DNA of 64,000 nt from Promethearchaeota archaeon (GTDB lineage: Archaea > Asgardarchaeota > Hermodarchaeia > Hermodarchaeales > Hermodarchaeaceae). Below, one piece after another: positions 60,724 through 64,000 of this stretch (the stretch's first letter is position 1; each line of letters begins with the position of its first letter). Both the position numbers and the translations under genes were made by a program. Location: NCBI GenBank assembly GCA_048939625.1, contig JBHLPH010000010.1:9943-73942 (forward strand), read 5' to 3'. The notes beneath the pieces are model-generated. The model made no database searches, had not been told where the DNA came from, and was given only the letters and a program-made list of their open reading frames with translations.

Positions 60724-62904
60724 ATGAAGCAATCCCGGACTGCAGCCGGGCTTCATATCCTCTGTCTTACGATAAGTATAATCCTGCTGTTTAATGGATT
60801 TGTCTTGTTGGTTCCATTAGGCTCCTCTAGCCTTCGTGCTACTTCTCACCTCCCCAATAGCTCTCTCAGGTTTTCAACCCCTCAAAGGAGGCTCCTTACA
60901 CCTCATGGGCGTGCTCAGCTTCCTGACAATCAAAGTGAACTTGTTGCCCAATTAACTTGGCAGCAACAGAAAGAATGGGCCAATTTGAATAGTCGCACAG
61001 AATTCAGTATCACCTTTGAACAAGGCCTGTTACGCCACGAGACGATGCAATTTACCAACATTCATCCCGAACCACTCCAAATCGCTGTTGAAGATTATAA
61101 TCCAGCTAATTGCCCCTTCGAGGATTACATTTGGACAGATGAAGAGTCCTATATGAGTTTCTACATTAACGGTTCAGAACCAGTTCGCATCAATGGGTTC
61201 TGGATTTACCTTCGTGGGGAATCACAGGGCATTTTCCGATACCGCGTCTACGGGGCCGAACCAGGAATCCAAGCTACAACTTTTGTCAATACATCCGCAT
61301 CCTTCACAGACTGGGTTGAAGTCCCCATCTCACCGACGCTCGAACCAGGGGAAGAATATTGGTTTTGGGTTGATGCAAATGAAAGTGCATTAGTTCTTGA
61401 TCCCTTGTCTACCTATGCGAATACTTTCTATTTTGGCTTGGGTCGTGCCTTTGGAGCAACGACTGACACGCACATCAATTGGGTTTACTGTCGAGATGAT
61501 GTGAACCCCGATGAAGAAGACGAAGGTGATTGCTATGGACATTTTAATTCCTGGTCTTACCGTACTCGTGATCTGTTCCTCAACGTGTCTATTTTGCCTG
61601 AATCTACAGATCTTTACCCTGTGGACATCGATATGCGCGTTAATGGGAAATCCGTCTCAAATCTGGGACCTCCTTCAGTTGGATTATGGGACAGTGAGGA
61701 CTACGAACCTCCAATTGTACTAAATGGCGATGCTCGCAGCTATCGTGTGGTGGTGGACTGGCCAGATTTCTATCAATGGTCAATTAACTATAATGTCCAA
61801 CTGGAAGGGAATTTTGTCGATTCGGTTTTAGTAATTTCTACACCAACTTCTGTCTATTTGGATGCAAACTGGCTACTCACGATAATCGTTGATTTCCCGA
61901 CAGGAATTACAAATCAGACAATCATACTTGCTCTTCCCTCTAACTGGACACTCCAATTTCTTCATCGAAACACCCTCCTTTATACGGATTGGCATTTGGA
62001 AGACTCTCTGCTTATCATAAATAATGCAGAAGATGGGCTTTGGCACCTCTATTGTATGGCGCCTGTCTCACCACTATCATTCTCCTGGTGGGGGCTCCAT
62101 TTAGGACTCGTTATCCTCGCTTTGATATTATTGGTCCTTTTCATTTTTTACCGCCAACAAATCTTGCTCCCGCGCCAACGGCGTCATCGTCGAGACCTTC
62201 AAGCGCTTGCTGACTCTTTTTATGATATCCATAAAATCCGACGCATCTTGCTAATTCACCAGGAAACGGGACTTTGCTTGTTAGACCCCATCGTTGATCG
62301 AAAAATGAAGGCGAATCTAGTAAGTGCTCTCATCCAAGCTATTACCGCTTTCGGATTAAACCTCACTGAAACCGAAGACTCATCCGATACACTCGATGTC
62401 ACTTCCTCGCTTCAGCAAATCACTTACCGCGACTTCCATATCATCGTCCATGATGGTCAGTATATGCGGAATGCCCTCATCTTCAAACAACCTCCCAGTA
62501 GTCAATTAGGGAAACGCTTAGAGGAATTTACAGAACGGTTCGAGGATCAATATCAGGATACCCTTGAAAACTGGGTCGGACGGCTGAACCTCTTTGATGA
62601 CGCCATCGACCTAGTTGATGAATACCTGTTTATTTCTCTGCGCCTCCCTCACATTGTGCAATCCGAACCCGGGTCTCACCTTTCTCTGTCTGCAACTGAA
62701 CGAGCCTTATGTGCCTTAGCCAAAACCTTGAGAAGGGAGGACGGGACCTTCACTATCTACACCCTCGTTGAAAAATACTTACAAGAAAGAGGCGTTCAAC
62801 GCATCGAAGTCTTCGAAGCGCTCTTCACACTCCGTGAAAAAGGAATTCTCGTTCCAATGCAGACTGAATTTCCTTATGAATTCAGTAACAATGCTTCTAC
62901 ATAA
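60724..62904 (+). CDS. Membrane protein: N-terminal anchor, beta-rich ectodomain, TM helix, cytoplasmic longin-like domain
   Basis: Hydrophobic aa ~10-32 and ~455-477; C-terminal LLIH.ETG.CL...NLVSALI.AI..F...F...FE..Y pattern. Confidence 0.7.
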   Translation: MKQSRTAAGLHILCLTISIILLFNGFVLLVPLGSSSLRATSHLPNSSLRFSTPQRRLLTPHGRAQLPDNQSELVAQLTWQQQKEWANLNSRTEFSITFEQGLLRHETMQFTNIHPEPLQIAVEDYNPANCPFEDYIWTDEESYMSFYINGSEPVRINGFWIYLRGESQGIFRYRVYGAEPGIQATTFVNTSASFTDWVEVPISPTLEPGEEYWFWVDANESALVLDPLSTYANTFYFGLGRAFGATTDTHINWVYCRDDVNPDEEDEGDCYGHFNSWSYRTRDLFLNVSILPESTDLYPVDIDMRVNGKSVSNLGPPSVGLWDSEDYEPPIVLNGDARSYRVVVDWPDFYQWSINYNVQLEGNFVDSVLVISTPTSVYLDANWLLTIIVDFPTGITNQTIILALPSNWTLQFLHRNTLLYTDWHLEDSLLIINNAEDGLWHLYCMAPVSPLSFSWWGLHLGLVILALILLVLFIFYRQQILLPRQRRHRRDLQALADSFYDIHKIRRILLIHQETGLCLLDPIVDRKMKANLVSALIQAITAFGLNLTETEDSSDTLDVTSSLQQITYRDFHIIVHDGQYMRNALIFKQPPSSQLGKRLEEFTERFEDQYQDTLENWVGRLNLFDDAIDLVDEYLFISLRLPHIVQSEPGSHLSLSATERALCALAKTLRREDGTFTIYTLVEKYLQERGVQRIEVFEALFTLREKGILVPMQTEFPYEFSNNAST

Positions 62905-62948: not shown

Positions 62949-63623
62949 CTAGCGTCGCATCCACGTTACTGCACCCAACTCAGTAACGAAAATACAAGGT
63001 AAATCAAACTCGATGGCCAGTTGATATAATGCCAAGGCACACACCTTGCCTCCACCGGTGACATCGACCAGAATAGAATACTCGCGAACCAGATCTTGGG
63101 AGAGACTGTACACCAGTTCATACATTTTCCCTAAATCATGTACAAAAATATCTTCAGGCACTTCATGTAAAATCCGATCCGGGGTCAATCCACTTAAGCG
63201 GCGCCGTGCGGCTTCTTCGACGAAATAGTGGTACTTTTCAGGACGAAGAGCGGTTTCTGCTCGAATCCGTTTCGGTACTGCATGTAAAACACTGGGGTCA
63301 TCGCCAATCGCTCCAATATAGGCTACAGGTGCGTTGACACCTAACACTCGACGTACACTTTGGATTTCATGGGGGACTAATCGGGCGGCTTTTTCTTTCC
63401 CATCTCGGAAGCGTTCAATCAGCCCATTATTTTCCAGATGCTGTAAATTGAAGTAGAGCATAGCATCGGACACTTCATCCACAGGTTTGGACACACGCCG
63501 TGCAATGGCGGCCCGTAACACCAATCCGGTTTGAGGACCATCCAGAAGATGGCGGAGGATAATCTTGCGTGCTTCGACGCCGCCGATGACCCGTTTAACT
63601 TTACCCTCAGACACAGTTGCCAC
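62949..63623 (-). CDS. Winged-HTH plus CARF-like domain putative transcription regulator
   Basis: N-terminal IL..L..GP...LY.NL..LE..GLI wHTH; C-terminal Rossmann-like region with IG.IG.DP and ILVDVTGGGK. Confidence 0.72.
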   Translation of the reverse strand: MATVSEGKVKRVIGGVEARKIILRHLLDGPQTGLVLRAAIARRVSKPVDEVSDAMLYFNLQHLENNGLIERFRDGKEKAARLVPHEIQSVRRVLGVNAPVAYIGAIGDDPSVLHAVPKRIRAETALRPEKYHYFVEEAARRRLSGLTPDRILHEVPEDIFVHDLGKMYELVYSLSQDLVREYSILVDVTGGGKVCALALYQLAIEFDLPCIFVTELGAVTWMRR

Positions 63624-63925
63624 CGATGATGGACGGTTCGCTCTTCCAGTGAAGCTCTCCCTGCAGACAGGTTGCTACATACCAACCCTACAAAGTCCGG
63701 CATATAAATGGCTCGTCCCCACGCCTCTTTGTCTAGACGAGTTTGCGGTTTAATTCAACAACACTATCACTAATAACGTTGATAGAGATGACGCCAAAAC
63801 CTGCCTCAATCTTTAAAAGCAAAATTCGAAGTGCTATGACTGGGAATACAAAGACCAGCCTGGGAAGTATTCCAGCCTGACTTACCCTTTTACCTAAAAA
63901 CCTTCGAAGGAGATGAAGCTATCCA

Positions 63926-64000
63926 ATGGCAACAGAAGAAGAAATGGTCACCGCCAAACCCTTGGTGGTTGACAACGGCACCGGCCTCAGCAAAAACGGC
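63926..64000 (+). CDS. Asgard actin (N-terminal 25 codons, truncated by the window end)
   Basis: MATEEEMVTAKPLVVDNGTGLSKNG contains the actin phosphate-1 motif (cf. LVVDNGSGMCKAG); SD-like GGAGATGA at 63909-16. Confidence 0.85.
   Translation, partial: MATEEEMVTAKPLVVDNGTGLSKNG

Follow-up and report, generated by a model that had tools for sequence, protein, structure and literature searches.

A predicted winged-helix CARF protein paired with the actin gene as a candidate regulator of actin expression in Asgard archaea

We identified a small protein with a predicted DNA-binding domain and a predicted CRISPR-type (CARF) ligand-sensor domain, the gene of which sits head-to-head with the eukaryote-like actin gene (lokiactin) in a Hermodarchaeote genome in which no CRISPR array was found, and in most of the Asgard lineages that have it. 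A matching palindromic site is found at the actin promoter in several of these lineages, and stays there even where the two genes have separated, which makes the protein a testable candidate for a dedicated switch of archaeal actin expression. Binding of the protein to this site, the sign of regulation and the response to a ligand are inferred. The window analyzed here is a stretch of 64,000 nucleotides from a Promethearchaeota archaeon (contig C19 of genome G000, positions 9943-73942), which ends at the contig end. In the following, the families, genomes, contigs and loci in our sample are denoted by f, G, C and L numbers, respectively.

The original prediction described a 224-aa minus-strand protein with a winged helix-turn-helix (wHTH) followed by a CARF region, separated from an actin ORF by a divergent intergenic region of about 300 nt and without cas genes or CRISPR arrays in the window, and this description was confirmed. 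The open reading frame is located at 62949-63623 on the minus strand and encodes 224 aa from a GTG codon at 63623. However, the homologs and the gene call start three codons later, at GTG 63614, which more likely gives a protein of 221 aa. The sequences YIGAIGDDP (residues 102-110) and ILVDVTGGGKVCALAL (residues 184-199), on which the CARF assignment had been based, are both present. The actin ORF on the plus strand (63927-64000) is only a 25-codon stub because the contig ends there, but its sequence matches the N-terminus of the lokiactin next to the ortholog in a relative (L002). It is preceded by a Shine-Dalgarno-like sequence, GGAGATGA, at 63909-63916, and the intergenic distance is 303-312 nt. 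The rest of the actin gene was not found in this assembly, and the only other actin-fold genes found were two tandem, distant actin-family ORFs with about 26-28% identity to lokiactin (G000:C45:24297-26424). Contigs end inside the lokiactin gene also in many metagenome-assembled genomes of the same genus (L002, L014, L016, L017, L020 and L021). Lokiactin seems to be a recurrent assembly break point, perhaps because co-occurring strains share near-identical sequence.

Sequence-based family searches gave only weak signals. The match to the Pfam PadR family (PF03551) scored 19.9 bits (E 7.5e-4), which is below the gathering threshold of 27, and the match to the NCBIfam Csa3 model (TIGR01884) scored 13.9 bits against a cut-off of 60.2. 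A sequence-profile search of PDB was marginal, with Can2 as a hit at E 0.57. In contrast, the PADLOC profile PDLC01987 ("CARF_m5--CARF") matched residues 18-222 over profile positions 9-195 of 195 (E 8e-44, 148 bits), and orthologs from Helarchaeota and Baldrarchaeia matched equally well. The protein is thus a member of a family that is already catalogued as a minor clade of the CARF superfamily (classification paper, PMC7498327), although public records name the proteins hypothetical, HTH or PadR.

An AlphaFold model built on 22 homologs was confident (pLDDT 91.1, pTM 0.85). In the model, residues 1-95 (63339-63623, minus strand) form a winged helix of the ArsR/PadR kind, with the best structural matches to CzrA (Z 10.9), Phr (Z 10.6) and PadR (5dym, Z 9.7). 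Residues 97-224 (62952-63335, minus strand) form a Rossmann-like alpha/beta fold with CARF topology and superpose on 15 or more solved CARF domains at Z 11-14.7, including Can2 8bao (Z 14.7, rmsd 1.8 A over 116 residues), VC1899 1xmx (14.4), Can2 7bdv (13.6), Card1 (13.2) and Csm6 (12.7), while Csa3 6wxq scored 10.8. The top hits in a Foldseek search were also CARF proteins, namely Can2, Csm6 and Cam1. The loop after strand 4, D187-V-T-G-G-G-K193 (63045-63065, minus strand), conforms to the CARF pattern [DN]-x-[ST]-x-G-x-[KR] and aligns with the N-V-T-G-G-T-K loop of Can2. CARF domains usually also carry a polar Ser/Thr motif at the end of strand 1, where this protein has I-G-A-I-G-D-D-P without any Ser/Thr, and the Thorarchaeota-type forms have T-S.

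A two-copy prediction yielded a symmetric homodimer through the GGGK loop, the following helix and the last strands (residues 188, 191-193, 196-204 and 212-222), with the loop located at the two-fold axis. The ipSAE was 0.49 as compared to 0.00 for the best control, a mark that was reached by 20 of 30 solved homodimers and 1 of 23 solved monomers. The runs shared at least 92% of the contacts, and the partner pLDDT was at least 87. However, since solved CARF dimers exist, this result may reflect likeness to known structures rather than independent evidence. A ring nuclease or another enzymatic CARF protein with the wHTH as an accessory was also considered, since ring nucleases such as Sso2081 are among the fold matches (Z 11.1). 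This match is no better than those to non-enzymatic CARF domains, no source of cyclic oligoadenylates was found, and the wHTH is the best conserved part of the protein, for which reasons we consider this alternative very unlikely.

The family is small and restricted to Asgard archaea. Only 63 representatives were identified at E 1e-3 or better among 1.84 billion proteins, and matches were obtained in 126 of 301 sampled genomes of the phylum. The genus of the window is placed in Ca. Hermodarchaeota, and the other carriers are labeled Baldrarchaeia, Freyarchaeota/Jordarchaeia, Helarchaeota, Ranarchaeia and Thorarchaeota. The regulator was not found, or was rare, in several large families: f4 (0 of 29 genomes), f13 (0 of 11), f27 (0 of 11), f21 (1 of 21) and f9 (6 of 68), where the few hits in the last two are mostly weak and partial, several covering only the CARF half. 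In the three such families in which the actin neighborhood was inspected (f4, f21 and f23), unrelated genes are located upstream of lokiactin.

The survey of gene order in relatives, which had been proposed as a test, showed that the pairing with lokiactin is deep. The two genes are head-to-head in at least 11 Asgard families, including the Hermod family, Baldr (f14), f20, Frey/Jord (f18), f2, f8, f12, f5, f26 and all eight Thor-type genomes examined, with intergenic regions of 140-600 nt and regulator identities that fall to 25-30%. The genes are tandem in f30, separated by 3-5 kb with another gene between them in Helarchaeota, and unlinked in f7 and f28. In Helarchaeota, an Arf/Ras-like small GTPase gene lies immediately downstream of the regulator and is convergent with it (L003 6692-7207; L004 6682-7197). 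The Thor-type orthologs (L053-L059 and L062) are about 265 aa long, with one insert in the winged helix and one in the CARF domain, and remain head-to-head with actin. The gene on the other flank of the regulator varies between lineages. In the window, this is a gene for a 726-aa single-pass membrane protein (60724-62904, plus strand) with no significant Pfam match, the homolog of which (53% identity) is found beside the regulator only within the same family. It is convergent with the regulator and shares no promoter with it. Thus, it is not part of the conserved unit, and control of this gene by the regulator, as suggested in the original prediction, is unlikely.

Within the Hermod family, comparison of the intergenic regions revealed several conserved segments. 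A TATA-like box, GCATATAAAT, at 63700-63709 is invariant in 11 genomes of the same family and is inferred from its position to belong to the leftward promoter of the regulator itself. The block TTTGCGGTTTAATTCAAC at 63742-63759 is invariant in the genus and may be a second cis element, since a TTTGCG core also appears in the Baldr (f14) and f20 intergenic regions. The candidate operator at 63757-63792 is an inverted repeat, the right half-site of which, TAGAGATGAC (63783-63792), is invariant in the genus together with its adjoining bases. The partner is either AACAACACTA (16-bp gap; 3 mismatches here and 1-2 in relatives) or ATCACTAATA (7-bp gap; 3 mismatches). The candidate operator contains the repeat CTATCA-N10-TGATAG. 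The arms are 16 bp apart in 10 of 10 genomes of the genus, with the weaker 7-bp reading as an alternative, and the flanks drift while the right arm does not. About 20 nt downstream of the candidate operator is the TATA box TTTAAAAG at 63812-63819 (plus strand), assigned by position to the actin promoter; both TATA boxes and the transcription start are assigned by sequence only. A genus-invariant block in the presumed actin leader (63840-63877, plus strand) contains GGAATAC-N17-GTATTCC, which is unique in the genome. No Rfam match was obtained for 63560-64000, and the predicted RNA fold of the actin leader was no better than shuffled sequences (z 0.42), and we therefore make no claim of a riboswitch or leader structure. 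Finally, at 63901-63916, a perfect 10-bp palindrome, CCTTCGAAGG, which is conserved in the genus, overlaps the Shine-Dalgarno-like sequence, which is also among the segments conserved within the family. Metatranscriptome contigs from four runs (three studies) covered only 63862-64000, corresponding to the actin leader and coding start, and essentially nothing of the regulator; contigs give neither a start site nor a level, and no conclusion is drawn from them.

Across families, the only shared element was a motif of the TATAGATGATATC type, located 25-35 nt upstream of the actin TATA box. In a leave-one-family-out test, a 14-mer was recovered at the same position in each left-out family, with shuffle fractions of 0, 0 and 0.0002 (0 to 1 of 5000 shuffles) for three families and 0.016 for the fourth. 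Read as 10-bp half-sites, ATCATCT[A/C]TA, the element is an inverted pair with a gap of exactly 7 bp, which was identified upstream of actin in 7 of 21 regulator-bearing genomes representing 6 families (f20, f18, f2, f26, two Helarchaeota and f7), as compared to 0 of 24 regulator-less genomes. Shuffled sets averaged 0.019 hits, and no other gap from 0 to 21 bp gave more than one. The palindromes in Helarchaeota and f20 are near-perfect. This co-occurrence is phylogenetically non-independent, and a few losses could explain it. No clear repeat with this half-site was found at the Thor-type (f6), f12, f5, f8 or f28 loci, and these lineages may use a diverged site. The copy in the window is weak against the cross-family consensus (3 + 1 mismatches), and at 4 or fewer total mismatches 7 sites per spacing were found in the genome, which is chance level. 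Its support therefore comes from conservation in the genus and from position, in addition to the finding that CTATCA-N10-TGATAG occurs only once in 2.3 Mb. The second copy of the 12-mer lies inside a coding ORF, and no regulon can be called.

One alternative is that the protein controls only its own gene or unrelated targets, with actin as a stable neighbor in a conserved housekeeping block. Local regulators commonly autoregulate, and genes on the other side (CDP-alcohol phosphatidyltransferase, nucleotidyl transferase, Sua5, THUMP and CGI-121) are also syntenic across classes. However, in Helarchaeota and f7, where the regulator gene is elsewhere, the repeat is located at the actin promoter and is missing from the upstream region of the regulator, which is the strongest argument that the element belongs to actin control rather than to autoregulation. 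The contact with actin also persists while the gene flanking the regulator on its other side varies, and we consider this alternative unlikely.

We next examined whether the ligand could be a cyclic oligoadenylate produced by a type III CRISPR system or a related cyclase, as expected for a Csa3-like defense regulator that reprograms transcription during infection. The best structural matches are CARF domains that bind cA4/cA6, and distant CARF paralogs of this family lie 3-4 kb from Cas10-like genes in Frey/Jord-type genomes (G028:C379:6652-11431; G070:C100:2528-7589), suggesting that the actin-linked clade descends from type III-associated CARF proteins. However, no Csm1- or Cmr2-type Cas10, no Cas1 and no CRISPR-like array were found in the whole assembly, which is 87.6% complete. 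Cas10-like matches were obtained in 40 of the 301 genomes, and only about 19 of the 126 regulator carriers have one, such that about 85% lack it. None was found in the Hermod family (0 of 18), f7 (0 of 5), f12 (0 of 3, two of which are closed genomes) or f20 (0 of 3). The locus is of a housekeeping type rather than a defense island. Thus, a CRISPR-made cyclic oligoadenylate is an unlikely general ligand, and a defense role of this kind is very unlikely.

It is also possible, although in our view unlikely, that the CARF domain has become a ligand-free dimerization module in a constitutive actin-promoter factor. The predicted dimer interface is entirely in the CARF domain, no Cas10 was found in this genome or in most carriers, and the CARF half is much less conserved than the wHTH, which is the most conserved part of the family (R19, G29, G33, R37, Y57, N59, L63 and R91). 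Moreover, the canonical Lys/Arg of the loop is replaced by Pro (G-P-P) in the Thor-type forms, and by Pro or other residues in f5 and f26. On the other hand, the D-x-[ST]-x-G-x-[KR] loop is kept in most short forms across distant classes, with D187 and G191 near-invariant, which would not be required for dimerization alone.

Taken together, we favor, with some confidence, the hypothesis that the gene encodes a homodimeric transcription factor, in which the CARF domain provides the dimer interface and a pocket on the two-fold axis, and the main target of which is the lokiactin promoter. The dimer would bind the inverted repeat of half-sites resembling ATCATCT[A/C]TA, about 20-35 nt upstream of the actin TATA box and, in the window, between the two divergent TATA boxes. 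In archaeal promoters, sites upstream of TATA tend to activate, whereas sites over or downstream of it tend to repress, and the position upstream of BRE/TATA therefore favors activation or dual control of actin. The head-to-head layout would also allow feedback on the promoter of the regulator itself, and autorepression is plausible in f2, where the repeat lies within about 50 nt of the regulator start codon. Occupancy of the pocket by a small molecule, in this organism probably not a type III CRISPR cyclic oligoadenylate, would tune binding by changing the relative position of the two winged helices. Of these elements, our analysis establishes the fold (as modeled), the family membership, the conserved gene pairing, and the conserved repeat with its co-occurrence with the regulator, whereas binding of the protein to the repeat, the sign of regulation and the existence of any ligand, an idea that rests on the fold alone, are inferences. 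The interpretation in the original prediction, a transcription factor responsive to a nucleotide second messenger that may control actin or the neighboring membrane gene, is thus only partly supported: the domain order, the location outside a CRISPR locus and the link to actin hold, but nothing shows that the ligand is a nucleotide.

A more speculative and doubtful reading is that a CARF domain taken over from antiviral signaling reads an endogenous, non-CRISPR small molecule and thereby sets transcription of lokiactin in most Asgard classes. This would make it a dedicated, signal-dependent switch for the archaeal forerunner of the eukaryotic actin cytoskeleton, with a defined 27-bp operator of the ATCATCTATA-N7-TATAGATGAT type. 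Work so far on the eukaryote-like cytoskeleton of Asgard archaea has concentrated on the proteins themselves (actin, profilin and gelsolin) rather than on their regulation. The locus offers a concrete candidate regulatory pair, consisting of a single small protein that should express well and a short palindrome at the actin promoter that is conserved across classes and was not found in the regulator-less genomes. It would also be a clear case of a CARF sensor working outside antiviral defense, which raises the question of which cellular metabolite or messenger it reads.

A CARF-fused transcription factor is a known type of system, with Csa3 as the model, and the CARF_m5 clade is catalogued, but its profile carries no description. 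Searches of the literature accessible to us on CARF proteins and actin in Asgard archaea, on lokiactin transcription and on CARF_m5 found nothing relevant, and the reversed domain order, the independence from CRISPR, the deep pairing with lokiactin and the promoter palindrome that tracks the regulator appear undescribed there. Csa3 is a dimeric CARF domain fused to a winged helix, acting as a ligand-tuned transcription regulator, as is proposed for the protein described here, and the CARF domains superpose (6wxq, Z 10.8, rmsd 2.6 A over 115 residues). However, the domain order is CARF-wHTH in Csa3 and wHTH-CARF here, there is no cas neighborhood, and the proposed target is a cytoskeleton gene rather than cas or CRISPR promoters. 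The CARF domains of Can2, Card1 and VC1899 (8bao, 7bdv, 6wxw and 1xmx) are the best fold matches (Z 13-14.7) and share the V-T-G-G-x-K loop followed by the A-L-A helix, but these proteins carry nuclease effector domains and act in type III defense, whereas the protein described here has only a wHTH. The N-terminal 95 residues have the fold of PadR and ArsR-SmtB winged-helix repressors (Z 9.7-10.9), but dimerization is predicted to occur through the CARF domain and not through the PadR/ArsR helices.
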